Translations under genes and position numbers: made by a program
Part shown: in pieces, positions 1,459-56,646 of the stretch
Layout of the letters: every line of letters starts with the position of its first letter
Numbering within the stretch: position 1 is the stretch's first letter
Assembly (NCBI GenBank): GCA_041649115.1
Contig: JBAZNT010000009.1
Coordinates: 10,501-74,500 of the forward strand
Origin: Candidatus Omnitrophota bacterium
Lineage (GTDB): Bacteria; Omnitrophota; Gorgyraeia; Gygaellales; Profunditerraquicolaceae
Direction: 5' to 3'
DNA: 64,000 nucleotides
Notes under the pieces: generated by a model
Seen by the model: the letters and a program-made list of their open reading frames with translations, nothing else
What the model was told of the DNA's origin: nothing
The model's database searches: none

Positions 1459-2391
1459 ATGAATAAACCGCGCATATTGATTGTTGATGACGATCCCGAT
1501 ATTCTGGACGTCCTCGAGATAACCCTATCCGAAGAGAACTACGAGATTTTAAAGGCGCGGGACGGAGAAGAAGCGCTGAAAATCATCAGGTCCAAACCGC
1601 TGGATCTGGTGTTGGTGGATTATAACATGCCTAGGATGAACGGAAGACAGGTGTGTACGGAGGTTAAAAAGGACGTCCTGCTGGGGCTGTTGCCTATCAT
1701 TATGGTTACGGGCAAAGGGGACATCGAAGACAAGGTCGGCGGCATAGAAGCGGGAGCTGACGACTATATCGTAAAACCCTTTGAACCAAAGGAGCTCCTG
1801 GCACGCATACGCATGATTCTGCGGCGCACCGAAAAGAATCTTGAAGCCAATCCCCTAACCAGGTTACCGGGGAATATCTCTATCTTAAACGAGCTCGGGC
1901 GCCGAATCGAAGATAAAAGCCCTTTTGCAGTCTGCTACCTTGACCTTGATAAATTCAAGTCCTTCAACGATAAATACGGCTTTGAGCACGGGGATGAGGT
2001 AATACGCGAGACCGCACGCATCCTTATCCGCACCGTCAAGGAGCTTGGAGACAAAGACGACTTTATCGGACATATCGGCGGAGACGATTTCGTGATTGTC
2101 ACCAGGCCTGTAACGGCGGATAAATTATGCGAAAAGGTTATCGCGGATTTCGACGCTACCATACCGTCTTTCTACAACGAAACAGACCGTAAGAACGGCT
2201 ATATTCTAGCCCATGACAGGCAAGGCAAAAGCCGCAAGATACCGCTGATGTCGATATCCATAGGCGTCGTTACCAACGAAAGCCGCAAGATTGAACATGT
2301 GGCTGAGATAGGCGAGATAGGCGCAGAACTAAAGAGTTACGCCAAAAAGGTCGGCAAGAGCAATTGCATCAAGGATAAACGCAAAGAATAA
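1459..2391 (+). CDS. Response regulator, REC domain fused to a GGDEF-type domain (motif reads GGDDF)
   Basis: REC motifs ILIVDDDPD, DLVLVDYNMPRMNG and VKPF. GGDEF-domain motifs NPLTRLPGN, FNDKYGFEHGDEVI and IGGDDFVIV. Confidence 0.85.
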   Translation: MNKPRILIVDDDPDILDVLEITLSEENYEILKARDGEEALKIIRSKPLDLVLVDYNMPRMNGRQVCTEVKKDVLLGLLPIIMVTGKGDIEDKVGGIEAGADDYIVKPFEPKELLARIRMILRRTEKNLEANPLTRLPGNISILNELGRRIEDKSPFAVCYLDLDKFKSFNDKYGFEHGDEVIRETARILIRTVKELGDKDDFIGHIGGDDFVIVTRPVTADKLCEKVIADFDATIPSFYNETDRKNGYILAHDRQGKSRKIPLMSISIGVVTNESRKIEHVAEIGEIGAELKSYAKKVGKSNCIKDKRKE

Positions 2392-2393
2392 CG

Positions 2394-2420
2394 GGGGCGG
2401 CTCTGCAGCCCCTAAATTTT
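2394..2420 (+). terminator. Possible intrinsic terminator after the two-component operon
   Basis: GGGGCGGC / GCAGCCCC imperfect stem with a 3-nt loop, followed by TAAATTTTT, starting 3 nt after the stop codon. Confidence 0.4.
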
Positions 2421-2653
2421 TGGCGCCTTTCCTCAGAATGCCCAAAGGCAGCCGTGTCAATTAACCTGCTCGATTCAATCCTGCCAGAACAATAAAGATC
2501 AGCGAAGAGAATAGGCCCCGCGGGCTTGGTCGTCCGCTCCCGCCTGCAGCGTGTTGCCGCTTAGGTCAACGTCCTGGAGCTAATGCAATCCGGGTTCGGC
2601 TCGGCTGAGGCTTACGACTGCCCTGCTAAGCATTTTTCAAAATAGCGACGTAC

Positions 2654-3787
2654 CTAATGAAACGCGCGCTCAACCCCCGCCTGAATCTGCTTTTTGAGTT
2701 CCTCCTTGAGTTTATTATCGATAAAGGCCCCCTCAAGCGCGTTGTAATTAAGCTGAACCAGCTCCTGCGGGCGCAATCCCATCTCTTCCATGCCAATAGC
2801 CCATTCCCTGTTTAAACTTGTATCAAATATCGTGCGGTCATCTGTATTCAGCGTGGCCTTAATCCCGCCCCTGAAATAAGCTGGCAGGGGGTGATTCCTG
2901 TAATTTTCGACGATTCCCATCTTAACGTTGGACGTGGGGCAAAGTTCCAGCACTATCCCTCTGTTTCTGACCAGATTATAAGTCCTTTTGTCTTCGCAAA
3001 GCCGTACTCCATGTCCGATTCGCGAAGCCCCCAGATCCCGGACGGCTTTTAAAATTCCCTCCGGACCGGATACCTCTCCGGCATGCGCGGTCAGATTAAG
3101 TCCATGCCTCTTTATAAATTCGCGGATCTCCCTGAAATTTTCTTTCGGGTAATCCTCCACGATATCGCCGATAAAATCGACCCCCACTACCCCCTTATCC
3201 TTGTATTCCCTGGCAAGCTGCAGGATGCGCAACTGCTGCTCCCTGGTATCCTTTCCGTTAAAACAAAGAATGAGTCCGCTTTTTACCGGGAATTTTTTTT
3301 CCGCCCTGTTTTTTCCACTGATAACCGCCTGAACGACCCGTTCCAGGCTCAAATCCCCGGAAACATGATAAGCGGGGGCAAAACGGAATTCAATATATAC
3401 GATGTTCTCTTTCCACGAATCCTCCAGGAATTCATAAGTAACTCGCTCCAGGGCGTCCTCGGTCTTTAACAAATCAATGATATAATTCAGCTTTTCTATC
3501 AAGGCGGGGTACCTGTTCTTCTCCGGAATCTCCTGCAGCCATTCTTTAAGATCCATGGCCCCGCCTCCCCGTTTCCTGCCCGAAGCGGCGGATAGCTCCA
3601 TTATGGTCTTTATCCGCACGGAACCGTCAAGGTGGGCATGCAATTCTACTTTCGGGATGTCGCGGATGTTTACCGGTAGGACCTCTTTATTCTGGGTTCC
3701 ACCTATCCCCTCCTGGATCAAGAGGAAAGACAGAAGTGCCGACACAAATATTACCCTGGCGATGCTCAAGAAATTCCCATTCTGCAC
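2654..3787 (-). CDS. add: Adenosine/adenine deaminase family metallohydrolase with a hydrophobic N-terminal signal or anchor
   Basis: Metal-binding VELHAHLDGS, HAGE and TLNTDD motifs typical of the adenosine deaminase family. N-terminus IARVIFVSALLSFLLI is strongly hydrophobic. Last gene of the minus-strand operon 8806->2654. Confidence 0.75.
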   Translation of the reverse strand: MQNGNFLSIARVIFVSALLSFLLIQEGIGGTQNKEVLPVNIRDIPKVELHAHLDGSVRIKTIMELSAASGRKRGGGAMDLKEWLQEIPEKNRYPALIEKLNYIIDLLKTEDALERVTYEFLEDSWKENIVYIEFRFAPAYHVSGDLSLERVVQAVISGKNRAEKKFPVKSGLILCFNGKDTREQQLRILQLAREYKDKGVVGVDFIGDIVEDYPKENFREIREFIKRHGLNLTAHAGEVSGPEGILKAVRDLGASRIGHGVRLCEDKRTYNLVRNRGIVLELCPTSNVKMGIVENYRNHPLPAYFRGGIKATLNTDDRTIFDTSLNREWAIGMEEMGLRPQELVQLNYNALEGAFIDNKLKEELKKQIQAGVERAFH

Positions 3788-3820
3788 GAATATCCCCCTG
3801 ATGCCGCCCCTGACTGATGA

Positions 3821-4555
3821 TTACAACCGAGAAATAAAATTCAGGTCTTTCTCCGAAATCTTTCCGGTATGTAATGCCGTCGCGATCAACACGGCATCCG
3901 CCCCGGCCGCCTGCAGGCAAGCCGCATCTTCTACCGACCTCACGCCCCCTCCGGTTATCACGTATGCATTGAGGTCACCGGCGGCCGCAATCAATTCCCG
4001 CGCGCACTCTGAAGGCCCTTCCATGGTGCCTACCCGGTCAAGGTCTAAAACGATAAAACTGCCTACGCCCAGCCCGCGCATCTCTCTTATAAGGGTTTTA
4101 ATGGAGCTGAAACCTCCGATGCTGCACATCGCGCCGCCGCCTTTTATATCGACGCTCACCGCGACGTTATCGCTCCCTTTTAGGGATACCGCATCGTAAA
4201 CAGCGCGCAACGAATTCAGCGTTTCGGTGCCCAATATAATGCAATCGGCAACCCTTGCGGCATCTTTGCGCAGGTCCTGCGGGTCTTTGATGCCGGGGTC
4301 CAAAAAAATCTTTACCCCGAGTTTATTCTTAATATCCCGCACGATGCCGAAGTTGTCTCCGGTGCCTTTGATCGAATCAAGGTCGGCAATGTATAGATCG
4401 TCCAGCATCAATTGATTTTTAAAAACCCCGGCAATGTCTAACGGATGGCAGGAAACGGTTAATACCGACTCAACCGGCTTGTAGAATTCCCTCTCGCCAC
4501 GGACGCCGTGGACTATTTTCCCGTCCAGAATATCAGCTACCGGTATCACCTTCAT
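3821..4555 (-). CDS. HisA/HisF-fold (beta/alpha)8 barrel protein, MfnF-like candidate
   Basis: N-terminal IPVADILDGKIVHGVRGE, then DLDSIKG, VITGGGVRSVED and VLIATALH, which resemble the HisA/HisF phosphate-binding motifs. No other his genes nearby. Lies in an operon with an MfnB homolog. Confidence 0.6.
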   Translation of the reverse strand: MKVIPVADILDGKIVHGVRGEREFYKPVESVLTVSCHPLDIAGVFKNQLMLDDLYIADLDSIKGTGDNFGIVRDIKNKLGVKIFLDPGIKDPQDLRKDAARVADCIILGTETLNSLRAVYDAVSLKGSDNVAVSVDIKGGGAMCSIGGFSSIKTLIREMRGLGVGSFIVLDLDRVGTMEGPSECARELIAAAGDLNAYVITGGGVRSVEDAACLQAAGADAVLIATALHTGKISEKDLNFISRL

Positions 4556-4638
4556 AAATTATGGAATTCCCCGGAATAAAACCGGAGCCGGCATCCATCG
4601 CCTTATGGCGGGCGCGTGATGCCCCGCCGGGGCAACTC

Positions 4639-5646
4639 TTAAATACGCCGGATAATTTTTAAATATAGCCGGTAAGCGCCCGTAAAGACCTTCAAGGCGC
4701 ACTTATTGGAGGACATGATTTTCTGCCCCAGGCCGTCCAGTTTCTTTTCAAGGCATGAAGAACAAAGGCCCCGGCCGAAATTAAAACCGGAGAGCCTCTC
4801 CCATAGAACGCCGGGAGTTTCGTATAATATGTTGCCGATCGATTTCTCGTAAAAAAGACAGGGCCAAAAATCCCCGTTGGATTTAATAAGCGGGAATTTA
4901 TTGCGATCGCAGATGGATACGTTGATAAGCGGGTTATTCTTGAATTCCGGCTTGGCGTGAATCCTTGAAGAAAACAGTTTCAGGAAAACCCTGATAATCA
5001 ACCAGAAAAAAAGGAACTGAAAAAGACCCAGCTGGTATTTCCTCCTGTGCTTAAAATTTTTATCGCATAAAAAAACGTCGACATGCACTTTTTTCACGCC
5101 GAATTTTTTCGCAAACCCGTCAATCTTAAAAATCTGGCCGAAGTTCATTCGGGTAACAAGCAGGGCCAGGTGGATCTCGAGCCCATCATTTCTGGCGCTG
5201 TTCAAGACTTCCAGGATATGGTCAAAATGCCCCTCCCGCGTGAAGCTATCATTGACCTTTGCAGTAGTGCCGTAAATCGTTATATTGATAGATTCCACAT
5301 CTAATCCCCGGAGCTTTTTAATCTTGTCCGCGTTTAAAAACCAGGAGTTCGTATCCACGCTTACAGCAGCCCCTTTTTTCCGCGCATATTCCATTATTTC
5401 AAAAAAATCGGGCCTCTCAAAAGGCTCGCCGCCCTGAAAAAGGATCTTAACGCAGGGCGGCCCCGTTATCTTATCAATCACCCGTTTTGACTCATCCAGG
5501 GACATATCCATTAACCGCCGTGTCTGATCGCTGATATAACAATGCGGACACCCGAAACTGCAGGAAGAAGTAATTTCGAAGCGAAAACGCGAAGGATGAT
5601 CTGTGCTGAAAGGCCGTCTATCCGTAACCGCAGTATTGCACTCCAT
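4639..5646 (-). CDS. Radical SAM enzyme with a Cys-containing C-terminal (SPASM/twitch-like) region and an internal hydrophobic segment
   Basis: CX3CX2C cluster motif SSCSFGCPHCY and a GGEP motif (FQGGEPF). C-terminal cysteines (ICDRN, WPCLF, LCSSCL). Hydrophobic stretch LGLFQFLFFWLIIRVFLKLF. Confidence 0.8.
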   Translation of the reverse strand: MECNTAVTDRRPFSTDHPSRFRFEITSSCSFGCPHCYISDQTRRLMDMSLDESKRVIDKITGPPCVKILFQGGEPFERPDFFEIMEYARKKGAAVSVDTNSWFLNADKIKKLRGLDVESINITIYGTTAKVNDSFTREGHFDHILEVLNSARNDGLEIHLALLVTRMNFGQIFKIDGFAKKFGVKKVHVDVFLCDKNFKHRRKYQLGLFQFLFFWLIIRVFLKLFSSRIHAKPEFKNNPLINVSICDRNKFPLIKSNGDFWPCLFYEKSIGNILYETPGVLWERLSGFNFGRGLCSSCLEKKLDGLGQKIMSSNKCALKVFTGAYRLYLKIIRRI

Positions 5647-5660
5647 CGATTTCCGTTAAT

Positions 5661-6479
5661 TCATTTGTTTTGCGTCAGGCTAAACAGCTCCGGCTCTGCG
5701 CCGTTGCATGTCGGGGGATGCGATTTCTTGAAAATACCAAGGAGGTCCTCCAGCGAAGATATTATTATATCCGCCTTTGTCTTATGTAAATTCGCGTTAT
5801 CAAAAAAAACCCCCGCGCCTGCCCAGCGGACAGGCTCAAGGTCATACGCGTTATCCCCGACAAACATGACTTCATTTTGGGCAATGCCAATTTTTTTACT
5901 CAAGTCTTCCAGTATGGACTTCTTGGTATCGAGGGTTACATTAACCTGGACGCCGCTAAGAATGCCGTCGGCATCAAAAACCAGGGTATTCGCAAAAAAA
6001 TGCCTTATTCCCAAGCGGCTACTGGCGTATTCGGCGAAGACGCCGATGCCGGTAGAGATAACTGCTGTTTCGATACCGGTTTTTTTTAAATACCCGACCA
6101 GATCCGCGGCCCCCCGGTTAAATTCCAGATTCTTGCATATCCCGGTAAAAAAATCCCTATGCGGCCTGGGCGACCACAAATTTATGGTATTTTCGTAAAG
6201 CTGACGCGCGTCCATCCTGCCGTCGGCATAATCCCTGAAAATTTTTTCCGACACCCGCTGCATGCCGGCGTATTTTTCCGTCACTAACCTCCAGCTGTTA
6301 GGGCAGCGGGTCAGCGTCCCGTCCAGGTCGAAAACCACCATCTTTATGCCGCGCGATAACCTTATTTTATTATCTATCACGCGCGCTGCCTGCCTCTTGC
6401 GCCAGCGCGGTTCTTTCATGCTTAAATAGAGATCACATAAAAACTTTTTGACCCGCTGCAACATAAAAACCTTACCCAA
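5661..6479 (-). CDS. HAD-superfamily phosphatase (subfamily IB / SerB-like); the true start may be internal
   Basis: Motif I VVFDLDGTLT, motif II VISTG, motif IV FVGDNAYDL. About 45 aa of basic N-terminal extension precede motif I. Confidence 0.75.
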   Translation of the reverse strand: MGKVFMLQRVKKFLCDLYLSMKEPRWRKRQAARVIDNKIRLSRGIKMVVFDLDGTLTRCPNSWRLVTEKYAGMQRVSEKIFRDYADGRMDARQLYENTINLWSPRPHRDFFTGICKNLEFNRGAADLVGYLKKTGIETAVISTGIGVFAEYASSRLGIRHFFANTLVFDADGILSGVQVNVTLDTKKSILEDLSKKIGIAQNEVMFVGDNAYDLEPVRWAGAGVFFDNANLHKTKADIIISSLEDLLGIFKKSHPPTCNGAEPELFSLTQNK

Positions 6480-6513
6480 GTATTTTAAAATACGTCCGGA
6501 TAGCCGCCCGGGA

Positions 6514-7227
6514 TCAAGCGCTGCCTTTTATCTTTGAGACAATCCTCTCTATCCGGGAGCGGTCCAGATCCGCGTTCCTGTCATTATTCAAACAAACCGC
6601 GCCTCTCACTCCAAAAATATCCACTCCGATGCCGGCCATTTTTTCGATATGGGTCTCATCTAACGAACCGGCAACGGCAGCTTTTATATTTTTTGCATGA
6701 CACCCCCGCACAAATTCTTCTATCTCTTTTAACGGCATCAAATCCAGCAGGCCCTTCCCGTCTTTTATCGCCGTATCGATCATCCCTACGGATGCGCCGG
6801 ATTCATGCGCTATCGCGGGGATATCCAGCGGGGCTACGCTTCCAACCCGGCAGTAATCGGCAAACCCGGCCGCGACCACCATGGCCCCGCCGCCTGCAAG
6901 GTCAACCGCCCCAACCGCCTCTTTCACTAACACCGCTGCCTCCTGCCTGTTTCTCGCCCCCCTTAAGCCTAATTTGATATAATCCGGCTTGAATTGCAGC
7001 GCTCCTAAGGCCGCCAAAGCCACTGTTCCCGGTAAATTCGGGACGTCGCCTACGGCAATGCTCCGCTGCCTACCGTCAGGAACTATATCCCATATTTCTT
7101 TTAAAACCCGGGGGGCCGGCGCTCCGAGAGATCCCTCTGCGGGATTTTTTACATCTAAAATGTCAAATCCGTATTTTATGAGCGTTGCTGCCTCTTGTTT
7201 ATTGATAACAGTAATCAGTATCTTCAT
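6514..7227 (-). CDS. mfnB: (5-formylfuran-3-yl)methyl phosphate synthase, MfnB family (DUF556)
   Basis: Near-collinear match to motifs I recall from M. jannaschii MfnB: DILDVKNPAEGSLGA, VGDVPNLPGTVALAALGA, DYIKLGL, VVAAGFADYCRVG, MIDTAIKDGKGL, AGSL, GVRGAVC..DRN. The catalytic Lys/Asp positions appear retained. Confidence 0.85.
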   Translation of the reverse strand: MKILITVINKQEAATLIKYGFDILDVKNPAEGSLGAPAPRVLKEIWDIVPDGRQRSIAVGDVPNLPGTVALAALGALQFKPDYIKLGLRGARNRQEAAVLVKEAVGAVDLAGGGAMVVAAGFADYCRVGSVAPLDIPAIAHESGASVGMIDTAIKDGKGLLDLMPLKEIEEFVRGCHAKNIKAAVAGSLDETHIEKMAGIGVDIFGVRGAVCLNNDRNADLDRSRIERIVSKIKGSA

Positions 7228-7230
7228 AGG

Positions 7231-8088
7231 CTATCCCCGGGCGATATGGCCTAAACTTAAAAAAAACAAATAATAAAACCCCTCCTGGAAACTGTAAAAC
7301 TTATCATTCCGCTCCCGCAGTTTTATGAAATTTTCCTGTATCGGCTCCGTTTTTTGCAGCACATATGCCCTCAAGGACGAGAATATAATCGTCCCCGTAA
7401 AAAAGAAATACCTGAGCGGGTTTATCGCTACCGCAATGAGTGCCGCAAAAAGAGGGATTATCAAAAATGCCTCTGCGACTCTGACCGATTTTTCTATACC
7501 GATAGCCCGGGGCAAAGAATATATCTTATCCCTTCCAAAATGCGCGATTTGGTGGATGACTTCGTGAAACGCCAGGTAGAAGAAAAATATCACCGAAAAA
7601 ACGCCTGCCGTTAAAGTGAACCTCTTCGCCAAGGACAGGAAGGGAAAGACGTAAAGGATAAACCCCAGGCATAAAGAATTTACAAGTATAGATAACAGGT
7701 AATTATCTTTAAGCCTTGCGAATGGAGCCTGATAGAAAAAAAACAAAACGGCATAAACTGCCAGCAACCATAAATAACCGGAGTTAAAAAAGGCCGTCAG
7801 GCCTATTATCAAAAGCGGGAGTATTGTCAAAATGACCGCCGTTTTCTCGTTCATGCCATCACGCAGTAAAACGCCGATATAGTTCTCTTCGCCCCAAACC
7901 TTGAAATCAAAATAGTCATTCATGGAAAAAGAATGCATCTGGATTAACAACAGTTGCAGTAATACTACGACTGCCGTTGCCGGCTTCGGCAGCGAATCCA
8001 AACTTAACAGAGCGATTACCCCCAACCCCAGATTTCTTATACAAAAATCCATCCTGTAAAATTTAAGTAATCTCGCAAGGTATTTCAT
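7231..8088 (-). CDS. Polytopic membrane protein, divergent UbiA-type prenyltransferase-like
   Basis: About 8 hydrophobic helices. The first motif NDYFDFKVWGEE resembles UbiA NDxxDxxxD. The second region HFGRDKIYSLPRAIG resembles DxxxDxxxGxxTLP but has His at the first Asp position. Confidence 0.5.
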   Translation of the reverse strand: MKYLARLLKFYRMDFCIRNLGLGVIALLSLDSLPKPATAVVVLLQLLLIQMHSFSMNDYFDFKVWGEENYIGVLLRDGMNEKTAVILTILPLLIIGLTAFFNSGYLWLLAVYAVLFFFYQAPFARLKDNYLLSILVNSLCLGFILYVFPFLSLAKRFTLTAGVFSVIFFFYLAFHEVIHQIAHFGRDKIYSLPRAIGIEKSVRVAEAFLIIPLFAALIAVAINPLRYFFFTGTIIFSSLRAYVLQKTEPIQENFIKLRERNDKFYSFQEGFYYLFFLSLGHIARG

Positions 8089-8125
8089 AATCCTTGTGCG
8101 GGATCCCGCCGGTCTTGGCGACCCC

Positions 8126-8806
8126 CTAAGGGACGATAACCGTCCCGGCAGACTTCCGCTTGCTCAAAATGCCTTCTATCCCCCCGCGGCAAGAAGCGGC
8201 AACGATGTGCGTGTCTCTTCCATACTTTACCGACAACTCAGGAAGGCATTCGTCAACGCAATCGCCGTATTTCTTTTTTATCAGCTCCGGCGCACGTATT
8301 TTAGATATGAATTTTTTGCGGCCAGGACCGCTGTAGATTCCACGGACGGATTTCACCAAGATGTTATGCTCGGCTTTAAGGGCATGCGAAAGATACAAAG
8401 CAATCGAATCGGAGGTAACGCTCCATGATTGCGGGAGAGGATTACCCCTCTTTAAAAGACGGTGCGCAAGAAAAACGGGAACCCGCTTATCATTTAAAGC
8501 TTTCATGCAGTCTTTAGCGCCGGTCACGGAAACAAAAGATTTATTTAACCCCGCAATAAGCATGCCGTTTATATCCATGGCCGCGATAGCCATCCAGTGG
8601 GCCAGGCTATCCGTGGTGCGGTACTCCATAGACAAGCTCCGGACGGCATCCGCTAACGCGCCTCCTCCCGGCAGGATAACTATCTTGTGCCCTTTCCTTG
8701 CCAGCCCGGCTATCTCACGGCAGATAGTCTTCAGTGCCTTTGGGTTAGCGATTACGCTTCCGCCGATTTTTACGATAGCGTTTACAGCCTTCATCTTATA
8801 TTTCAT
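8126..8806 (-). CDS. Amino-acid-kinase-fold small kinase (aspartate/glutamate/uridylate kinase superfamily), MfnE-like candidate
   Basis: VKIGGSVI and ILPGGGALAD nucleotide/phosphate-binding motifs. About 226 aa, shorter than UMP or aspartate kinases. First gene of the operon containing mfnB. Confidence 0.65.
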   Translation of the reverse strand: MKYKMKAVNAIVKIGGSVIANPKALKTICREIAGLARKGHKIVILPGGGALADAVRSLSMEYRTTDSLAHWMAIAAMDINGMLIAGLNKSFVSVTGAKDCMKALNDKRVPVFLAHRLLKRGNPLPQSWSVTSDSIALYLSHALKAEHNILVKSVRGIYSGPGRKKFISKIRAPELIKKKYGDCVDECLPELSVKYGRDTHIVAASCRGGIEGILSKRKSAGTVIVP

Positions 8807-8928
8807 AACCCGTATTTATAAATTGTATCAGTTTTTGGGAAGAAAACAAAGAACAATGTGGGGCGGCCCCGGCGCCACGGGAAGAAAACACCGATTAGCC
8901 AGGCGCCTTAACAGCCGCCTGTTAAGCC

Positions 8929-9543
8929 TTATCTTAAAGACAGCTGACCGCACCTGGCCGTGCCTCTTACGGTGGCAAGTTGCAGGCCGTGTCTTAAAAG
9001 GTAGTTCCTAAAATAAACGGCCGCCTCTTTATCAACAAGTTCAAGCTTCCCGCTCCTTTGTTTGTATCCGAAGGGATGAATGCCGCTTGCCCAGCGACCG
9101 GGGGAAAATCGCCTTCTTAAACCGAGCTTCACGGGTTGGGAGATTATTTCGCGTTCGTATTTGGCGAATAATCCGAACTGGCGGGACATAAGGAGGCCTG
9201 CGGGAGTGGCGGTGTCGATCAATTCGGTTATCGACTTGAAGCCGGCGGCGTTCTTGCTTAGTTCTCCGACAATATCAAGCAGGTCTTTGAGGTTACGGGA
9301 GAAGCGGCGGATCCTGTAGGATAGGACGGCTTCAAATTGCCGTATCGCGGCATCGGCCAGCAAATGCTGTGGTGCTGGCCGGCGTTTCGTCGCGGCAGGG
9401 CAGCCGTCATCGCAATATATTTCGGTAGGCGTCCGGCCTTTATTGCGTATAAACCTGATTATCTTATCTGTCTGGGCGGCGAGAGAGTTTCCTGCCTCGG
9501 CTTGTTCGTCGGTGGGGACCCGTACGTACACCGCGCATTTCAT
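8929..9543 (-). pseudogene. Decayed and truncated serine recombinase (large serine recombinase N-terminal part)
   Basis: MKCAVYVRVPTDEQ matches the YxRVSTxxQ catalytic motif, but the nucleophile Ser is Pro (codon CCC). The ORF ends about 25 aa after the PFGY recombinase-domain motif (about 204 aa, against more than 450 aa for intact enzymes). The 3' end of tRNA-Leu lies 180 nt away. Confidence 0.7.
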
Positions 9544-9723
9544 GGCGGCCTCCAGGTTTGCGCCTTCCGGGTTTTCTCGCGGATTCCGACTGACAAGAAA
9601 ATAGTGGAACCTCTTACGAAGTTCGCCTATTCTTGAATTTGCCCCGCCGAATTTCCGCCGAAAACGCAAATTTTGGCGCTCTGTCCCGGGAAAGAGACCT
9701 TTGGGGTCAACCGTTCAGATTAG

Positions 9724-9804
9724 TGCGCGGGGGGGGAGTTGAACCCCCACACCTTACGGCATAAGCCCCTCATGCTTACGTGTCTGCCATTCCACCACCC
9801 GCGC
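9724..9804 (-). tRNA. tRNA-Leu (anticodon GAG), no encoded CCA
   Basis: Hand-folded. 7-bp acceptor GCGCGGG/CCCGCGC, anticodon stem TAAGC/GCTTA with loop ATGAGGG, long variable arm, T-arm GGGGG-TTCAACT-CCCCC. Confidence 0.85.
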
Positions 9805-9883
9805 GTATGCTAATCTCTATATTATATAGTATCCGGGGCTATTTTACAGATTTTTTCTGAAAGCCGAATGCAGCCGGTCCGCC

Positions 9884-10063
9884 CTACGGCTCGCCGTACT
9901 CCTCAACCTGCGCCTCTACCCCCTGGGGATAGGTAGCATCGGAATCCAGCGTAAATCTACGCCCTGCCTGTTGCTCTGTATCTTTTACGGTTTGGCACCC
10001 GTATAAACAAAACCCAGTTAATGAGAATACCGCCAACATCACTAATGCTGCTGTCCTTAACAT
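9884..10063 (-). CDS. Small putative lipoprotein (59 aa)
   Basis: AGGAGG lies 5 nt upstream of the ATG at 10063. Signal peptide MLRTAALVMLAVFSLTGFCLYGC carries Cys candidates for a lipobox. The longer ORF-track start would overlap tRNA-Gln. Confidence 0.5.
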   Translation of the reverse strand: MLRTAALVMLAVFSLTGFCLYGCQTVKDTEQQAGRRFTLDSDATYPQGVEAQVEEYGEP

Positions 10064-10097
10064 CAGCGCCTCCTCTTTCTTTAACTTCCCTAAATAA

Positions 10098-10168
10098 CTG
10101 CCCCGCATGGACTCGAACCATGATAACAAGATCCAGAATCTTGCGTCCTACCATTAGACGACAGGGCA
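10098..10168 (-). tRNA. tRNA-Gln (anticodon CTG)
   Basis: Hand-folded. U1-A72 acceptor, anticodon stem CAAGA/TCTTG with loop TTCTGGA, T-arm CATGG-TTCGAGT-CCATG. Confidence 0.85.
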
Positions 10169-10175
10169 ATGGCTA

Positions 10176-10754
10176 TCAGTAGTTTTCTGCCAATACCTCG
10201 TAGAAAGACTGAGGATGTTTGCAGGCCGGGCATTCCCGCGGCGCCTCAGCCGATTCAATGACATAGCCGCAATTAATGCAATGCCATTTCACCGGGGCCT
10301 TCTTCTTAAACACCTCGCCTGCTGCAATATTGCTGATAAGCTTACGGTAGCGCGCCTCATGGAACTTCTCGACCTTGGAGACCTGCTCAAACGCCCGCGC
10401 AATCTCCGGGAACCCTTCGTCTTTGGCAGTCTTGGAAAAATCGCTGTAGATAGCAGTCCATTCCAGATTCTCTCCTGCAGCCGCTGCCTCCAGGTTAGCC
10501 TTGGTATCCTGGAGCTGCCCGGCAGGATAACTGGCGGTTATCTCAACGTCGCCTCCCTCAAGGAATTTAAAAAATACCTTGGCGTGTTCCTTTTCATTTT
10601 CAGCGGTTTCAATAAAGATGTCGGATATCTGCTGGAAGCCTTCTTTTTTGGCTATCGAGGCAAAGTAGGTATAGCGGTTCCTCGCTTGTGACTCGCCGGC
10701 AAAGGCGGCGAGCAAATTTTTCTCGGTCCTGGTGCCCCTAATGGTCTTGCTCAT
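10176..10754 (-). CDS. rbr: Rubrerythrin (ferritin-like di-iron domain plus C-terminal rubredoxin domain)
   Basis: [32 protein letters not shown] and EEHAKVF di-iron motifs, with C-terminal CINCG...CPACKHP. Start placed at the ATG at 10754. Confidence 0.9.
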
Positions 10755-23999: not shown

Positions 24000-24665
24000 C
24001 TAGGCCCCTGCCTTGCCGGGGACAGCCATCCGGCGGGGCCGGGCGCTTCTTTTATAATCCTTGGGCTCTCGTATCTTACGCATCTTAGCGAGGGCCTTCT
24101 TTTTTTCCAGCTCCCGGTAGATTAAAACCCAGGCGCAGTCCGTATCTTTATCCACCTCGCATTTCCCCTTGTTCATTCCTCCGCACGGCCCATTCAAGAG
24201 ACCCTTGGGGCAGAGCGTGATTGGACAAATACCCATGGTAAACCCCAATACGCACTCCCCGCACATGGAGCATTTCTCATAGAAATCTCCGCGACCATCC
24301 GTAACCGCGCCAAATAGGGTATCACAGCCGGGCAGGACGGACAAACCAATCCTTTCATTATCCTTTATTGACTGCACCCCTAAACCACAGCTTAAAACCA
24401 ACACTGCTTCGGCCTCACGCATGGCCTTGCTGTTTTTAGCCAGTTCCGTCTTGGCCTGAGCGGCAATACAGGGTGCCTCCGGCACGCAGGTCCCGGTTAT
24501 AAACTTGCCGCTCTTCTCAAGGACCTTCTGCATGGCAATAACCTCATCCTTGCCGCCGCTCTTACAGGTAGTCGCGCACTCCCCGCAACCCACTAGGAAT
24601 ATCTTATGGTAATCTCTAAGAAGTTCTAATATCTCTTCTTGGGGCTTCTGCCTGCTGACAATCAT
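24000..24665 (-). CDS. Methylenetetrahydrofolate reductase C-terminal-domain protein (MetV-like, Cys-rich)
   Basis: GCGECATTCKSGG, CSMCGECVL, CPKGLLNGPCGG. No metF is adjacent. Confidence 0.7.
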   Translation of the reverse strand: MIVSRQKPQEEILELLRDYHKIFLVGCGECATTCKSGGKDEVIAMQKVLEKSGKFITGTCVPEAPCIAAQAKTELAKNSKAMREAEAVLVLSCGLGVQSIKDNERIGLSVLPGCDTLFGAVTDGRGDFYEKCSMCGECVLGFTMGICPITLCPKGLLNGPCGGMNKGKCEVDKDTDCAWVLIYRELEKKKALAKMRKIREPKDYKRSARPRRMAVPGKAGA

Positions 24666-25975
24666 TATCCCTGCCTCCTTAACTCTTCCAGCCGTTTTTT
24701 AATCTTGGCTTCAAAACCGATATCGCCGGGGCGATAATAGTCGGCGTCTCCAGGAGTATATTTTTGTTTTACATAGTGGTCCTTGTAATCGTGGGCGTAT
24801 TTATAGCCTTTGCCGCGCCCCAGCTTCTCTGCGCCGCGATAGGAGCTATCCTTAAGGTGCAGCGGGACTTCCTGAACTTTCTGTTTCTCAATATCAGAGT
24901 AGGCCTTATCAATTGCCAAGTAGGAGGCATTTGATTTCGGGGCACAGGCAACATAGATAGCGCTTTGGGCCAGCGGAATACGCGCCTCCGGCATCCCCAC
25001 AAATTCCGCAACCTGCAATGCGGCATTGGCTAAGACCAAGGCAAGGGGATCGGCATTACCAACATCTTCAGCAGCACAGATACAGATACGCCGGGCGATA
25101 AAACGGGGGTCCTCTCCGGCATAAAGCATCTTTGCCATCCAGTATATCGCGGCATCGGGGTCAGAGCCGCGCATAGATTTTATAAAGGCGGAGGCGGTAT
25201 CGTAATGTTCGTCCTCATCGCGGTCATAGAGCACTGCTTTTTTCTGGATGGACTCCGCGGCTGCCTCAAGCGTAAAATGAACCGTGCCATCCTTGGATTT
25301 GGGGGTAGTCAGAACCCCCAGTTCAAGGGAATTCAGCACCCTCCTGGCGTCCCCGCCCGAAGCCTTAGCCAGAAAGGTCAATGCCTTTTTATCGGCCTTA
25401 ACCTTTAATTCTCCCAGGCCCCGCTCTTTGTCCTTTAAGGCCCGGCTTAGTATAAGGATTATGTCGGCATCATTGAGAGGCTGAAGTTCAAAAACCACGG
25501 AACGCGAAAGAAGCGGAGAGACAAGGTAGAAGAATGGATTATGCACGGTTGCGCCTATCAAAACGGGGTTGCCGTTCTCAACGTCCGGCATCAGGACATC
25601 CTGCTGGGCCTTGTTGAAACGATGTATCTCGTCGATAAAAAGGGTGGTCTTGCGACCGCCGGAGATCCTCTTGTGCTTGGCCTGGGCAATGAGTTTCCTT
25701 AATTCTTCTACATTGGAGGTGGTGGCATTGATAGAAACATAATAAGAGCTGGTGGCATTGGCAATGCAGCGGGCAAGAGATGTCTTGCCGCTTCCGGGAG
25801 GCCCGTAGAGGATGATGGAACTCAGGCGATCCGCCTCAATAGTACGGCGCAGCAGCTTACCTTTGCCTAGGATGTGTTTCTGTCCTACAAATTCATCTAA
25901 GGTGCCTGGGCGCATGCGCGCTGCCAGAGGAAGCCCTTTCGGTGTTTCTTTGGTCTGTTCTTCAAAAAGTTCCAT
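24665..25975 (-). CDS. rarA: Replication-associated recombination protein A (AAA+ ATPase)
   Basis: [16 protein letters not shown], Walker [12 protein letters not shown], Walker [16 protein letters not shown]. Start placed at MELFEEQ (25975) rather than the upstream extension. Confidence 0.9.
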
Positions 25976-26208
25976 AAAAGAATATAAATAAAAAATCCCC
26001 GCGCTGTGCCGTTGGAAGGCGATAGTCTGAACCGTTTTGGTTTCAGGTGGGTGCCCTCTCCTTGGACGCTCGCGCCCAAAGAAGCATAGAGCCCCCTTAT
26101 GTTGGTGTTGGTTCAACAATTATCAGTATTCCAACGTGCACGGCAGGGATATCTAAAAGAGCGTCTATTGTCACTGTAAGTATAACACATTTTAAAACCC
26201 TAGTCAAA

Positions 26209-39472: not shown

Positions 39473-40284
39473 GCCTTCTCCTCCGGAACATCCTGAGCAA
39501 TCTCAATGCTTTCTTTATGTAGCGGCGCCAGGCCTAAAATCTCTCTGCTTAAATCCTCGTATTTCTGGGCCCCAAGAGAGTTTTTATCGTATAAAGCAAT
39601 GGGCTTCCCAAAGCTGGGAGCTTCTGTGATACGGATATTGCGAGGGATAACCGTATCATAAACCTTTTCATTGAAATAATTTCTTACTTCCTTGATTACT
39701 TCCCGCGTCAAATTAGTCCGAAAATCCGCCATAGTTAATAAGACTCCTTCGATTTCTAAGGAGGGGTTAAGGTTCTCTCTTACAAGCTTAACTGTATTAA
39801 TGAGTTGCGTCACTCCTTCCAAGGCATAATATTCACATTGAACAGGGATAAGCAAGGAATCCGCCGCACATAATGAATTAATGGTCAAAAGCCCTAGCGA
39901 AGGGGGAGAATCTATGATTATAAAATCAAGGTTTCCCTTTTCTTGTGTCAGGGCCCGTTTTAAACGGTATTCCCTGCCCATTACCCCTACTAGCTCTACT
40001 TCAGCTCCTGTCAAATCGAGATTGGAAGGCGCAAGATATAAATTTTGAATTGCTGTTTTTTGGAGAGTTTCTCTGATATCAAGCTCTTCTAATAAGACGT
40101 GGTAAGTACTTTTCTTGATATCGTGCTTATTGATACCTAATCCGCTGGTGGCATTTGCCTGGGGGTCAAGGTCAATGACTAATACTTTTTTTTCAGCTAA
40201 AGCCAAGTAACTGGCTAAGCTAATGGCAGTTGTAGTTTTGCCGGTACCACCTTTTTGGTTACAAACCGCAATAATCTTACCCAT
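39469..40284 (-). CDS. parA: Chromosome partitioning ATPase ParA/Soj
   Basis: Deviant Walker A CNQKGGTGKTTT. Start placed at MGKIIAV (40284). Confidence 0.93.
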   Translation of the reverse strand: MGKIIAVCNQKGGTGKTTTAISLASYLALAEKKVLVIDLDPQANATSGLGINKHDIKKSTYHVLLEELDIRETLQKTAIQNLYLAPSNLDLTGAEVELVGVMGREYRLKRALTQEKGNLDFIIIDSPPSLGLLTINSLCAADSLLIPVQCEYYALEGVTQLINTVKLVRENLNPSLEIEGVLLTMADFRTNLTREVIKEVRNYFNEKVYDTVIPRNIRITEAPSFGKPIALYDKNSLGAQKYEDLSREILGLAPLHKESIEIAQDVPEEKA

Positions 40285-40373
40285 TGAAAAATATGGAGTT
40301 ACAAAATGTTCCACGCGGAAACATTTATCTCGATCTATCGCTTATCTTTATTATCTTATAGGTTTTAAGGTTG

Positions 40374-40574
40374 TCAAGTCTTTTCTCTGGATTTGATTAC
40401 TGTTATGCGCACTTTGGCCAATTTAGCTCCTGACATTCCAAACAGCCCCTTTTCCTCTTCAGAGAGCACCTCTATCTTAAGTCTCTCCAGCGGCAGCCTT
40501 AATTCCTGGAGCGCTTTATCAATCGCTTCTTCTACTGTTTTTCCTTCGAACTCGCGGGTAATTTGAGGGGTCAT
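40374..40574 (-). CDS. Jag_N-only protein (N-terminal domain of Jag/KhpB without KH/R3H)
   Basis: EGKTVEEAIDKALQELRLPLERLKIEVLSEEEKGLFG matches the Jag N-terminal domain. The ORF is 66 aa and overlaps the yidC stop. Confidence 0.7.
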   Translation of the reverse strand: MTPQITREFEGKTVEEAIDKALQELRLPLERLKIEVLSEEEKGLFGMSGAKLAKVRITVIKSREKT

Positions 40575-42103
40575 TTTGGGCGATTAATCAACAATTGTTG
40601 CAGCATCATTAGAGAGCTATTCACAAACCAGTAAAGAACAAGACCCGATGGCATACGATAAAAAATGAAACCAAACATCACCGGGAAAAGAATAAGCATT
40701 AACTTCTGTTGCTCTGCGGAAGCGCTACTCATGCTTTTCGAAGAAATCTTCTGCTGCATAAACATCGCAACAGCCATTAAAATAGGTAAAATATTAATCT
40801 CATTTCCCAGAAAAGGAAGCTTATGAGATAATGTAATGAGCCTGTCTGGTTCTGATAAATCTTTAATCCATAGAAATTCTGCACCTTTTAAGGCTGCCGA
40901 ACGCATTAATACCTGGTACAGGGCGAAAAATATGGGTATTTGTAATATCATGGGCAAACAACCGCCAAAAGGATTAACTTTATATTTGCGATAAAGCTCC
41001 ATTATTTCCTTGTTTAATCTTTGGGGGTTATCTTTATAATTTGCCCTTAATTCCTCAATGCGAGGCTGCAATGCCTGCATTGCTTTCATCGAATGCATCT
41101 GCTTTAAAGTCAATGGGTAAAGAATAAGATAAATTAAAATGCTGAGCAATATAATTGAGAGGCCCCAATTATGCACAATAATATGAATTATGCCAAGTAA
41201 TTTCAAAAGGATACGGGCGATAAAATCAAAGACTCCGTAATAAATAACTCCTGACCATTGAGGATTGATGCTGTTTATCATATGTAACTCTTGCGGCCCC
41301 ATATAGATAAAAAATTTCTGCTTTATTTTTTCTCCGGAGATCAAAGAAAGTTCCGGAGAGTAGAGAATAGGCTGGGTTTCAGAGGAATTAAGTTTTGCCA
41401 GGGTTAAATTGTAAGAGGGGCTGGCTGGTTCCAAGATTTCGCAAAAATAACGCTCGCGCCAACCAATAAACTTTATATTTTCCCAGCTGGCGTCCTTGCG
41501 GGGATTAGGATGGAGAACGTCTCCGTTTAAAGCAACCGTAATATCCTGATAATTCGGCAGATTACCGTGTTTGGAAAAATCCAAAATTACGGGGATTAAT
41601 CCTATGGAGGTATTTAGGGCATCGCTACTTTTATTAATAATTTCTATCTCTAACTCTATGTAATAATTAGAGTTATTAAAAATGAACCGTTTGAGAATTT
41701 GCAAATCTTTACCATTATAAACAAAGGTGGCCTCTTTATCCGTGAGAGATTGATTTTTAAAGACAAACCGGGGATCAGCAAGGGCAAGTCCATATTTCAA
41801 AGGCACGCGGTGAGAACGGTAGTCCTTAAAAATTATTTCCTTAATTGCTGCGCGGGGCTCATCAAAATCAATTGCGAGCTTGTCCGTGGAAAAAGCAATG
41901 GTTTTGCCATTTTCACTAAAATTAACGGCGGGCGTTTCTGGTTGAACCCTTCTCGGTTTTGGCTCAGGGAGAGGCTGTTCTAAGGCGGCCTCTTTTTTTA
42001 TAACTTCTTTATTATCAATATGATAAGATTTTGAAGTCAGCGCAGACCAGGTTAATAAAACCAGTAATGACAAGGCAATAGCCAGAATCAATCTTTTTTC
42101 CAT
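40571..42103 (-). CDS. yidC: Membrane protein insertase YidC
   Basis: N-terminal TM, large periplasmic domain, conserved C-terminal core (NPFGGCLPMILQIPIFFALY, PSGLVLYWFVNS). Confidence 0.95.
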   Translation of the reverse strand: MEKRLILAIALSLLVLLTWSALTSKSYHIDNKEVIKKEAALEQPLPEPKPRRVQPETPAVNFSENGKTIAFSTDKLAIDFDEPRAAIKEIIFKDYRSHRVPLKYGLALADPRFVFKNQSLTDKEATFVYNGKDLQILKRFIFNNSNYYIELEIEIINKSSDALNTSIGLIPVILDFSKHGNLPNYQDITVALNGDVLHPNPRKDASWENIKFIGWRERYFCEILEPASPSYNLTLAKLNSSETQPILYSPELSLISGEKIKQKFFIYMGPQELHMINSINPQWSGVIYYGVFDFIARILLKLLGIIHIIVHNWGLSIILLSILIYLILYPLTLKQMHSMKAMQALQPRIEELRANYKDNPQRLNKEIMELYRKYKVNPFGGCLPMILQIPIFFALYQVLMRSAALKGAEFLWIKDLSEPDRLITLSHKLPFLGNEINILPILMAVAMFMQQKISSKSMSSASAEQQKLMLILFPVMFGFIFYRMPSGLVLYWFVNSSLMMLQQLLINRPK

Positions 42104-42111
42104 AGGTTTCC

Positions 42112-42327
42112 TTATGTTAAGGGGTCATACCATGATTTTCCGGAGTAGGGGTGGCAGTGCAATATCCTGAACATCCCTTTTAATAAACCGCGCAAGACGC
42201 CATACTTGCTAATGGCCTGGCAGGTATATTCTGAACAGCTCGGAGTAAAACGACAACAGCACGGCAGCCATATCCTCACATACCCCTGATAAAAACCAAT
42301 AAGGGCGATGGATATCTTCTTTAGCAT
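42112..42327 (-). CDS. yidD: Membrane protein insertion efficiency factor YidD
   Basis: CRFTPSCSEYTCQAISKYG and HPYSG motifs. Confidence 0.9.
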   Translation of the reverse strand: MLKKISIALIGFYQGYVRIWLPCCCRFTPSCSEYTCQAISKYGVLRGLLKGMFRILHCHPYSGKSWYDPLT

Positions 42328-42464
42328 TAAATGGTCAGTTTTTTTCTGCCCTTGCCACGCCGCCTGGCAAGCAGCTTCCTGCCGCTCCTGGTGGCCATTC
42401 TTTTCAAGAAGCCGTGACGGCGTTTACCGACGAGCTTTGTAGGGGTTTTTAGATGTTTTTTCAT
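42327..42464 (-). CDS. rpmH: 50S ribosomal protein L34 (45 aa; not in the ORF track)
   Basis: Hand translation gives [45 protein letters not shown]. The stop TAA overlaps the yidD ATG (TAATG). Confidence 0.92.
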
Positions 42465-42658
42465 TTCCTTCTTTCTTTAAAACAAACCTTCTGCCTACAT
42501 GCCAACGGGGTTTCCCCGGGCTGCTTTTAATAATAGGTTTTAATTATAACATAAAGAAAGGCCAAGTCAATGCAAATTCTAAGAAGCAAACCCAGAGATG
42601 CAAAAGCGGTTTGTAAAAATTTCTGCAGGCCGCCAGAAACTCATATTTGTTATTTTTG

Positions 42659-42686
42659 TTGACGGCGTCCGGGAGTAGTGTATAAT
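42659..42686 (+). promoter_or_regulatory. Sigma70-like promoter upstream of dnaA (P1)
   Basis: TTGACG (42659-42664), 16-nt spacer, TATAAT (42681-42686). Confidence 0.5.
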
Positions 42687-42708
42687 AATTAACGCTTTGT
42701 TTTTTTTA

Positions 42709-42736
42709 TTGCAATGGTTTTAATCCCTGTTATAAT
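42709..42736 (+). promoter_or_regulatory. Second sigma70-like promoter upstream of dnaA (P2)
   Basis: TTGCAA (42709-42714), 16-nt spacer, TATAAT (42731-42736). Confidence 0.5.
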
Positions 42737-42737
42737 A

Positions 42738-42779
42738 CTTTCCACAGGTTTATACAATTTGTGGATAAGCTGTGGATAT
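42738..42779. promoter_or_regulatory. DnaA-box cluster (oriC / dnaA autoregulation)
   Basis: TGTGGATAA (42760-42768) is a perfect complement of TTATCCACA. TGTGGATAT (42771-42779) has one mismatch. TTTCCACA (42739-42746) is a near box. The gene-strand switch occurs here. Confidence 0.7.
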
Positions 42780-42824
42780 TGTGTAAATCCCGAACAACCC
42801 CTCGATAATTAATAGGAAAGCTGA

Positions 42825-45388: not shown

Positions 45389-45391
45389 AAT

Positions 45392-48132
<2,741 letters not shown>

Positions 48133-54901: not shown

Positions 54902-54903
54902 TA

Positions 54904-56626: not shown

Positions 56627-56646
56627 TCCTCCTCCTTCCTGTTTGG

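Follow-up and report, generated by a model that had tools for sequence, protein, structure and literature searches.

What is a set of genes for the furan arm of methanofuran doing in a bacterial operon that also encodes an integral membrane enzyme? The question is raised by positions 2654 to 8806 of a 64,000-nucleotide stretch of DNA from a Candidatus Omnitrophota bacterium (GenBank assembly GCA_041649115.1, contig JBAZNT010000009.1, positions 10,501 to 74,500 of the forward strand), which at its full length is called the window here. To our knowledge, no role of (5-formylfuran-3-yl)methyl phosphate (4-HFC-P) and its derivatives is known other than that of precursors to methanofuran and methylofuran, the soluble one-carbon (C1) carriers of methanogens and methylotrophs. 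We tentatively propose that the region encodes a non-canonical furan pathway, in which the furan arm is reused and coupled at the membrane, a reading that in our judgment falls only a little short of probable. It is carried by the presence of three furan-pathway families in the operon, namely MfnB, an MfnE-like kinase and a barrel protein of the Orf17 type (MfnF is not among them), and by the recurrence of these genes, together with that of the membrane enzyme, in other bacteria and in archaea. The module is thus made up of known families, but its wiring, its hosts and its probable product are new.

The operon comprises seven open reading frames (ORFs) on the minus strand, running from 8806 down to 2654 with gaps of 37, 3, 34, 14, 83 and 33 nt. 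A first-pass annotation of the window had described seven minus-strand genes spaced by 3-83 nt, and all of them were found at the positions it gave. Pfam and NCBIfam profile scans of the seven proteins (some 50 window ORFs were scanned overall) bear out six of its family calls; the seventh, which made the barrel MfnF-like, gives way to an assignment to the Orf17/MJ0703 family. The genes are listed below in the order from 8806 downward, module B being the accessory block that is discussed further on.

8126..8806, minus strand: MfnE-like kinase of the amino-acid-kinase fold (PF00696 and NF040622)
7231..8088, minus strand: divergent integral membrane transferase of the UbiA superfamily, predicted (PF01040 and AlphaFold2/Foldseek)
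6514..7227, minus strand: MfnB, (5-formylfuran-3-yl)methyl phosphate (4-HFC-P) synthase (PF04476, NF002573)
5661..6479, minus strand: HAD-IB phosphatase, phosphoserine-phosphatase-like, accessory, module B (TIGR01491, PF00702)
4639..5646, minus strand: radical SAM enzyme, accessory, module B (PF04055)
3821..4555, minus strand: HisA/HisF-related TIM barrel of the Orf17/MJ0703 family (PF00977, TIGR00734)
2654..3787, minus strand: adenosine-deaminase-family enzyme, accessory, module B (TIGR01430)

The strong MfnB assignment made in the first-pass annotation holds. The protein matches PF04476 with 230 bits over model positions 1-227 of 228, it aligns over its full length with MJ1099 (PDB 4RC1_A, residues 2-228, E 9.7e-56), and the MfnB motifs that had been quoted are all found in the sequence. 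Active-site roles of Asp25, Lys27, Lys85 and Asp151 in MJ1099 were reportedly described by Wang et al. in 2015, and the window protein keeps D25, K27, K85, D151 and also K155 at MJ1099 numbering. Lys155 has been named as catalytic in MfnB (PMC11365854). The identity of the window MfnB is 47-58% to the MfnBs of the related loci described below, about 50% to those of methanogens, and about 53% to its nearest named relatives, which are Omnitrophota metagenome-assembled genomes (MAGs). In a rough neighbor-joining tree, calculated without bootstrap, most MfnBs of the related loci stand apart from those of methanogens and Bathyarchaeia.

The kinase (PF00696, 78 bits) finds its best NCBIfam match in the MfnE model NF040622, with 112.8 bits (E 1.8e-32) over model positions 3-210 of 211, compared to 44 bits for ArgB, 31 for isopentenyl-phosphate kinase and 30 for UMP kinase. 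It groups thus with MfnE, as had been supposed, and not with the isopentenyl-phosphate kinase, UMP kinase or ArgB families. Its sequence varies more among the related loci, at 29-43% identity. The closest solved relative is PDB 7QRH (E 1e-20), an uncharacterized protein titled 'Aspartate/glutamate/uridylate kinase', of which a full-text literature search found no mention; it may be an unpublished MfnE-type structure.

The barrel matches PF00977 with 122 bits, and its best NCBIfam model is TIGR00734, 'HisA/HisF family protein', for which it scores 159.2 bits and stays under the cutoff of 179.85. The scores for true HisA (TIGR00007, 89 bits) and HisF (TIGR00735, 37 bits) are lower, and there are weak matches to the WbuZ and AglZ/HisF2 models. 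At all 38 columns that are at least 90% conserved among 26 family members the protein holds the conserved residue, and the family residues D8, R22, Y25, Y55-A-D-L-D60, D86, E111, S134, D136, GGG202-204 and H229 are present. Named relatives are annotated as 'HisA/HisF-related TIM barrel protein', and a 40%-identical homolog lies in an archaeal locus, L019, between MfnD-like and MfnA-like genes and near MfnB and an MfnE-type kinase. Judged by these residues and scores, the barrel is a conserved-core member of the Orf17/MJ0703 HisA/HisF-related family.

An assignment as MfnF, which the first-pass annotation had favored, was considered and rejected. None of the MfnF-named NCBIfam models matches the barrel at E<=0.01, and in Methylorubrum (M.) extorquens MfnF is Orf9, Orf22 is MfnB and Orf21 is MfnE (Hemmann et al. 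2021, PMC8141765), so that the mapping given earlier, with orf20 as HisA-like, orf21 as DUF556 and orf22 as the kinase, also has to be corrected. The PF00977 protein of the HisA/HisF family in that organism is a separate one, Orf17, with the homolog MJ_0703 (PMC8141765). Deletion of orf17 abolished methylofuran without accumulation of the Glu-n intermediates; Orf17 is thus essential, being genetically required at an early, core-forming step, although its reaction was not assigned (PMC8141765).

The protein encoded between the kinase and MfnB matches PF01040 with 41.3 bits, just over the gathering score of 34.2, while a profile of its clade found no UbiA match among the PDB sequences even at E<=1. 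Because the sequence profile found no solved UbiA protein, the fold was addressed by means of an AlphaFold2 model (predicted local distance difference test, pLDDT, 92.4) and Foldseek. The search gave template-modeling (TM) scores of 0.71-0.77 to digeranylgeranylglyceryl phosphate (DGGGP) synthase (6M31/7BPU) and to AfUbiA (4TQ3), with UBIAD1 also among the closest folds; the match to the fold of a membrane phosphoribosyltransferase was weaker (TM 0.69, E 0.04). As modeled, the protein has the UbiA fold, at an identity of only 13-16% to the solved UbiA-fold structures and 15-16% to those of DGGGP synthase. Its closest NCBIfam models, 'prenyltransferase' and DGGGP synthase, reach only 26-31 bits, and it fails the DGGGP synthase model NF009522 with 25.9 bits versus a cutoff of 353.

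Canonical UbiA enzymes have two Asp-rich motifs, NDxxDxxxD and DxxxD. In the window protein the first takes the form N57-x-x-x-D61...E67-x-N69-Y70, corresponding to N-[D/N/H]-x-x-D-x5-E-x-N-Y in the clade, and the second the form E176-x-x-H179-Q-x-x-H183-x-x-x-D187, corresponding to E-x-x-H-Q-x-x-[H/D]-x-x-x-D; the residues at both diphosphate/metal-motif positions are invariant within the clade. The second motif contains an HExxHxxxH stretch that is invariant in the close clade, and the possibility that its HExxH is a zincin-type protease motif was considered. When the wider family is aligned, only E176 and H179 turn out to be general, and H183...D187 occupies the position of the canonical DxxxD, with H and D alternating. 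We prefer to regard the region as a probable modified diphosphate/metal site. Since the positions of both motifs match that site, a diphosphate-dependent transfer stays plausible.

Relatives of the UbiA-like protein are few. A word-seeded search of 5.8e9 proteins returned 17, and an exhaustive profile search of 1.84e9 cluster representatives returned 39 at E<=1e-30 and 264 at E<=1e-3; by these counts it is a member of a small, isolated and rare clade. As for MfnB, the nearest named relatives are Omnitrophota MAGs, at 53-56% identity for the two proteins. It is also the best conserved member of the module; its identity reaches 59% when the protein of the bacterial window is compared with that of an archaeal contig.

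The loci that carry this gene were compared by genomic context and tblastn tables, with flanks of up to 10 kb. The UbiA-like gene occurs in about 19 distinct loci, which we call UbiA-linked. The kinase is present in 16 of the 17 that can be assessed for it, in each case adjoining the UbiA-like gene, the rest being contig ends or one distant outlier; MfnB is present in 14 of 15, and the barrel in 14 loci. Overlaps between these genes, or gaps of 1-13 nt, are frequent. What is conserved is a core of four genes, namely kinase, UbiA-like protein, MfnB and barrel. The seven-gene synteny, put forward earlier as a feature to look for in related MAGs, is not the conserved unit, as only this core recurs widely. 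The steady linkage to the kinase fits the earlier suggestion of a UbiA-type enzyme that uses a diphosphate-activated alkyl donor.

The bacterial carriers are Ca. Saelkia tenebricola and other Omnitrophota, and MAGs labelled 'Spirochaetia' and 'Deltaproteobacteria'; the archaeal ones are Aenigmatarchaeota and Ca. Nanoanaerosalina (Nanohaloarchaeota). The records with the module include GCA_030765145.1 (Ca. Saelkia), JAGVVZ01 (Aenigmatarchaeota), JALDAI01 (Ca. Nanoanaerosalina) and MGSU01. One archaeal freshwater contig with the module also carries genes for S19e, L37ae, prefoldin and eIF2-alpha. The module has evidently been transferred between the domains. Two of the contigs are long, Ga0315282_10000008 with 690 kb (L028) and NAR1_11 with 676 kb (L029), and were examined over flanks of 10 kb on either side of the module. 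Their size is typical of near-complete genomes of DPANN archaea, and the retention of the module in reduced genomes suggests that it matters for the lifestyle of these organisms.

The neighbors of the module are mostly envelope and glycan genes, encoding GT2 and GT4 glycosyltransferases, PMT_2 and PF10131 proteins of the GT-C-like type, and further a Wzx-type flippase, a small EamA-type transporter, polysaccharide deacetylases and an RfbT-like methyltransferase. B12-radical SAM enzymes adjoin it in some loci. The commonest fifth gene, next to MfnB or to the barrel in 8 UbiA-linked loci and not present in the window, encodes an AsnB-type glutamine amidotransferase of about 600 aa (GATase_7 and Asn_synthase domains). 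It is found at L001 10812-12608, L011 7933-9759, L014 8198-9970 and 15021-16862, L020 4074-5879, L021 11573-13396 and L022 4220-6019, and also in L028. Because this is the commonest additional gene, the formation of an amide or amidine on the furan unit is suggested in most carriers.

A few further observations concern these loci. The pairing of AsnB-type protein and barrel recalls the pairs of HisF-like and PP-loop amidotransferase proteins in glycan amidation. In the Aenigmatarchaeota locus L014, a triose-phosphate isomerase gene (6118-6921, minus strand) adjoins that of the barrel, upstream of the module, in keeping with a glyceraldehyde-3-phosphate supply that serves MfnB specifically. Radical SAM enzymes with the zinc-ribbon PF23545 (Zn_ribbon_HMPTM) are encoded near the module in an archaeal locus (L002 14074-15249) and in Ca. 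Saelkia (L001 19701-20714). This domain is presumably named after the pterin methylase of the methanopterin pathway, and would then be another family of the methanogen-cofactor type in non-methanogens.

The four-gene core can be compared with several known systems. It shares with archaeal methanofuran biosynthesis (MfnA-F of Methanocaldococcus jannaschii) the MfnB enzyme, the MfnE-type kinase and the MJ0703-type barrel, as well as the chemical logic by which a furan-methyl phosphate is activated to the diphosphate for alkyl transfer. It differs in that the Tyr decarboxylase MfnA, the ATP-grasp ligase MfnD, the aminotransferase MfnC and the soluble MfnF are found neither in the window nor in the related loci sampled, a UbiA-fold membrane enzyme being linked instead, and in that the hosts are not methanogens. 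MfnF couples the two arms of methanofuran by formation of an ether bond (PMC11365854). The methylofuran cluster of methylotrophs likewise combines a bacterial MfnB, an MfnE-type kinase and an Orf17-type barrel, and no UbiA-like gene is described in it (PMC8141765); unlike that cluster, the window operon has no Orf9/MfnF, MyfA/MyfB glutamate ligases, fhcABCD or tetrahydromethanopterin (H4MPT) genes nearby, and the C1 genes of the window are of the folate type.

The archaeal ether-lipid pathway, from geranylgeranylglyceryl phosphate (GGGP) synthase to DGGGP synthase, offers a different likeness, as it also combines a phosphate-binding TIM barrel with a UbiA-fold enzyme (6M31/7BPU, TM about 0.71) and uses diphosphate-activated alkyl donors to form ether products. 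The identity of only 13-16%, the altered Asp-rich motifs, and a barrel that is related to HisA/HisF and not to PcrB/GGGPS set the window proteins apart from it. Decaprenyl-phosphate phosphoribosyltransferase (8J8J/8J8K), finally, is an enzyme of the UbiA fold with a non-isoprenoid diphosphate donor and a polyprenyl-phosphate acceptor; the product of this UbiA-family enzyme is a lipid-linked donor for extracytoplasmic GT-C enzymes, with a phosphatase acting downstream. GT-C-like genes (PMT_2, PF10131) and the small EamA-type transporter adjoin the furan module in some loci, and a phosphatase is present in the window. With the weaker fold match (TM 0.69, E 0.04) and no GT-C gene by the window operon, a functional likeness would be a matter of conjecture.

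The three accessory genes belong to a block of their own. The HAD protein matches PF00702 and reaches 110 bits for TIGR01491 (cutoff 151.9), and its best PDB match is the M. jannaschii phosphoserine phosphatase 1F5S (E 9e-17). The radical SAM enzyme (PF04055, 77 bits) has its CxxxCxxC at C29/C33/C36, a Cys-rich C-terminal region (cysteines 246, 263, 295, 298 and 316), and an internal hydrophobic or amphipathic stretch at residues 204-229. Its N-terminal 170-190 residues resemble SPASM enzymes of the AhbD/MftC type, none of the NCBIfam radical SAM subfamily models reached its cutoff, and the best PDB match, with only 34.5 bits, is the lipid-modifying tetraether synthase 7TOL. The deaminase is over the equivalog cutoff of TIGR01430 (274.1 versus 216.55 bits), matches the adenosine deaminase 6N91 best in the PDB (E 8e-50), and has intact HxHxDG (HAHLDG), HAGE and NTDD motifs. 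Because an N-terminal hydrophobic segment, of the signal or anchor type, is present both in this protein and in its 61%-identical ortholog in L017, the deaminase is probably exported or membrane-anchored.

The order HAD, radical SAM, barrel, deaminase is found in only one other organism (L017/L018), at 57-62% identity (57% for the HAD protein, 60% for the radical SAM enzyme), with genes for a GT4-radical SAM fusion and for a GDSL/TPR protein coming next. The HAD protein, a radical SAM enzyme of the window type and the deaminase were not found in the other UbiA-linked loci surveyed. Because this block, with the barrel, recurs separately in L017/L018, we regard the window operon as a fusion of module A (kinase, UbiA-like protein, MfnB) with module B, the barrel being shared.

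A GDSL/SGNH-lipase and TPR protein is also encoded in the window (61594-63042, plus strand); its 34%-identical homolog in L017 (8014-9438) adjoins the block, and a similar protein is encoded near the furan module in L011 (57-1325). It could be a recurring partner in envelope modification or simply a protein typical of the lineage.

In the pathway that we propose, MfnB would condense two glyceraldehyde-3-phosphate molecules to (5-formylfuran-3-yl)methyl phosphate, a step that is strongly supported by homology. The MfnE-like kinase, acting after amination or amidation if any occurs, would add a second phosphate to give a furan-3-ylmethyl diphosphate, an alkyl donor of the benzylic or allylic type; family membership and gene linkage argue for this step, and the Orf17/MJ0703-type barrel would perform the same early step as in methanofuran and methylofuran synthesis. 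In place of the soluble MfnF, the UbiA-fold enzyme would then move the furan-methyl group from the diphosphate to an acceptor in the membrane. The prevalence of envelope genes in the neighborhoods suggests that the acceptor is a polyprenyl phosphate, lipid or lipid-linked glycan, and the furan moiety produced would stay bound to the membrane or the surface, in contrast to soluble methanofuran. The UbiA-like protein is the sole member of the cluster from a family that uses diphosphate-activated donors, and we infer that it replaces MfnF and is the defining element of the variant. The weakest step of the scheme would be a locus-specific tailoring, carried out in most relatives by the AsnB-type amidotransferase, B12-radical SAM enzymes and methyltransferases, and in the window by the HAD phosphatase, the radical SAM enzyme and the putatively exported protein of the adenosine-deaminase family. 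The variant furan metabolite suggested in the first-pass annotation is retained here as far as MfnB, the MfnE-like kinase and the missing canonical partners are concerned, while the MfnF-like barrel and the seven-gene unit have been dropped from it.

Several points weigh against this pathway. MfnB is under the NCBIfam equivalog cutoffs (246.1 versus 341 bits for NF002573, 226 versus 304 for NF002575), and so is the kinase (112.8 versus 300 bits for NF040622). The canonical NDxxDxxxD and DxxxD motifs are altered in the UbiA-like enzyme, whose metal or substrate may differ from those of any known UbiA enzyme, and for which a prenyl diphosphate as donor and the furan as acceptor would be equally conceivable. 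The cluster has no amination enzyme of the MfnC type, and the kinase may act on the aldehyde or on the amine. Genes for MfnA/C/D/F and Fwd/Fhc may lie in other parts of the genomes. No glycosyltransferase or GT-C gene adjoins the operon in the window, and in L017 the accessory block stands without MfnB, UbiA-like or kinase genes on the 11.4-kb contig. Donor, acceptor and product are all inferred.

The alternative that survives best takes up one of these points. The UbiA-like protein would be a conventional prenyltransferase with the furan ring or its hydroxymethyl group as acceptor, leading to a prenylated furan lipid or a quinone-like cofactor, and the kinase and the HAD protein would only manage the phosphate handle. 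Nearly all characterized enzymes of the UbiA superfamily use isoprenyl diphosphates, and DGGGP synthase, AfUbiA and UBIAD1 as the closest folds point in the same direction, as do the names of the closest NCBIfam models, 'prenyltransferase' and DGGGP synthase, at scores of only 26-31 bits. The window encodes DXS, so that isoprenoid precursors are available, and a HAD phosphatase is at hand. However, such a scheme leaves the conserved MfnE-like kinase without a purpose, since to make a furan-methyl diphosphate is to activate the furan for its own transfer. Nor does any surveyed locus have a linked polyprenyl-diphosphate synthase gene, and the canonical Mg-diphosphate motifs are altered. We consider this alternative unlikely.

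Another possibility is that ordinary methanofuran or methylofuran is made, the cluster supplying F1-PP and the rest being encoded elsewhere, with the UbiA-like, HAD, radical SAM and deaminase genes as unrelated neighbors. MfnB, the MfnE-like kinase and the Orf17-type barrel are indeed genuine families of that pathway, the window MfnB is about equally similar to the MfnBs of methanogens (about 50% identity) and to those of its own clade (47-58%), and the gene survey covers the window and the locus flanks of up to 10 kb. Within this scope, no MfnA/C/D/F, Fwd/Fmd, Fhc or H4MPT-type gene was found among the roughly 50 ORFs scanned in the 64-kb window, and no MfnA-, MfnD- or hydantoinase-like gene in any UbiA-linked locus; the absence of canonical partners from the window, as first annotated, is thus matched by that of MfnA/MfnD-like genes in the related loci sampled. 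A canonical-type archaeal cluster does look different, as seen in L019, where MfnB, an amino-acid kinase, the ATP-grasp MfnD-like protein, the PLP-decarboxylase MfnA-like protein and the barrel are encoded together and no UbiA-like gene is present. Furthermore, a UbiA-like protein that shows identities of up to 59% across domains and whose gene accompanies that of the kinase in 16 of 17 assessable loci is no chance neighbor. The hosts belong to the DPANN archaea and to Omnitrophota-like bacteria and include neither methanogens nor methylotrophs, the C1 genes of the window are of the folate type (5-formyltetrahydrofolate cyclo-ligase and a C-terminal domain of methylenetetrahydrofolate reductase), and most UbiA-linked MfnBs stand apart from those of methanogens in the rough tree. 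The synthesis of ordinary methanofuran here appears quite improbable.

It might also be asked whether two separate units merely abut, the furan module (kinase, UbiA-like protein, MfnB) on one side and a nucleoside-related unit of HAD, radical SAM, barrel and deaminase on the other, the latter processing, for example, an adenosyl or 5'-deoxyadenosyl compound from the radical SAM enzyme. The block does recur in L017/L018 in the same order and at 57-62% identity without module A genes on the contig, the substrates of the HisA family are derived from adenine nucleotides, adenosine deaminase is a nucleoside enzyme, and a terminator-like hairpin lies at the junction of the two units. Two hairpins are relevant to the operon:

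6496..6511, minus strand: weak terminator-like hairpin at the MfnB/HAD junction, the boundary of modules A and B (consensus scan only)
2502..2521, minus strand: terminator-like hairpin 3' of the last gene (2654..3787), possible end of the operon (consensus scan only)

The scan returned 18 sites versus 10.4 +/- 3.1 expected, and the MfnB/HAD hairpin is not strong evidence. The division into two units is improbable to much the same degree as ordinary methanofuran synthesis, as 14 loci have the barrel as a core partner of the furan module and it is the sole copy near module A of the window, the genes lie on a single strand with gaps of at most 83 nt, the L017 contig is just 11.4 kb long so that module A may lie elsewhere in that genome, and an exported or anchored deaminase fits poorly with cytosolic salvage of a by-product.

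To return to the proposed membrane-coupled furan pathway, because the module is conserved, ties the furan arm to a membrane transferase and is carried by organisms whose genomes are very small and which show no sign of the corresponding C1 chemistry, a second function of the biological furan unit is indicated, probably in the cell envelope. In a broader form, the pathway would be shared across domains by symbiotic or episymbiotic prokaryotes of ultra-small size, namely DPANN archaea, Omnitrophota and a small number of further bacteria, in which the UbiA enzyme would put a furan, as aldehyde, amine or amide, onto a polyprenyl phosphate, a lipid or a surface glycan by way of furan-3-ylmethyl diphosphate; this wider claim is doubtful, although clearly conceivable. 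If true, it would add a new class to the known envelope modifications and give the furan unit of methanofuran a second biological use, outside C1 metabolism. The UbiA-like protein would be a candidate UbiA-fold enzyme with a non-prenyl donor, and the module offers a simpler genetic context for the reaction of the Orf17/MJ0703 barrel, a gap in methanofuran and methylofuran biosynthesis.

A full-text literature search found no description of the MfnB/MfnE/barrel/UbiA module or of methanofuran genes in Omnitrophota, and one DPANN survey lists 'methanofuran biosynthesis' simply as an annotated pathway. Some caution is called for in this respect, since 'Methanofuran biosynthesis' annotated from MfnB/MfnE in DPANN or Omnitrophota MAGs is probably not methanofuran.

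As to its setting, the window is a piece of bacterial chromosome around oriC, with dnaA, dnaN, gyrB, gyrA, parAB and yidC. The oriC region at 40000-46000 contains yidC, parA, parB, dnaA, dnaN and gyrB/gyrA, the GC content falls there to 0.39-0.45, and the sign of the GC skew switches near 42 kb; about 35 kb separate the furan operon from oriC. The window also encodes 2-oxoacid:ferredoxin oxidoreductase and DXS, and at 53506-58047 on the minus strand there are five successive ORFs of 182, 284, 289, 272 and 466 aa with no Pfam match at E<=1e-5. The following features lie upstream of the operon or elsewhere in the window:

8929-9669, minus strand: ORF of 246 aa with only the N-terminal domain of a serine recombinase (Resolvase), directly upstream of the operon
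9723-9804, minus strand: tRNA-Leu(GAG), beyond the recombinase ORF
10097-10169, minus strand: tRNA-Gln(CTG), beyond the recombinase ORF
25992-26152, minus strand: 6S RNA (Rfam RF00013, 63.5 bits)

The recombinase ORF is probably a truncated remnant. A genomic island at tRNA-Leu was considered and is not supported, as no att-like direct repeat of the tRNA end was found in 2300-10300 and the GC content is ordinary, though an integration event stays conceivable. The 6S RNA covers the first 43 or so codons of a mechanically called MgsA/RarA-like ORF with a TTG start (24665-26119, minus strand), and the true start of that gene probably lies further downstream.

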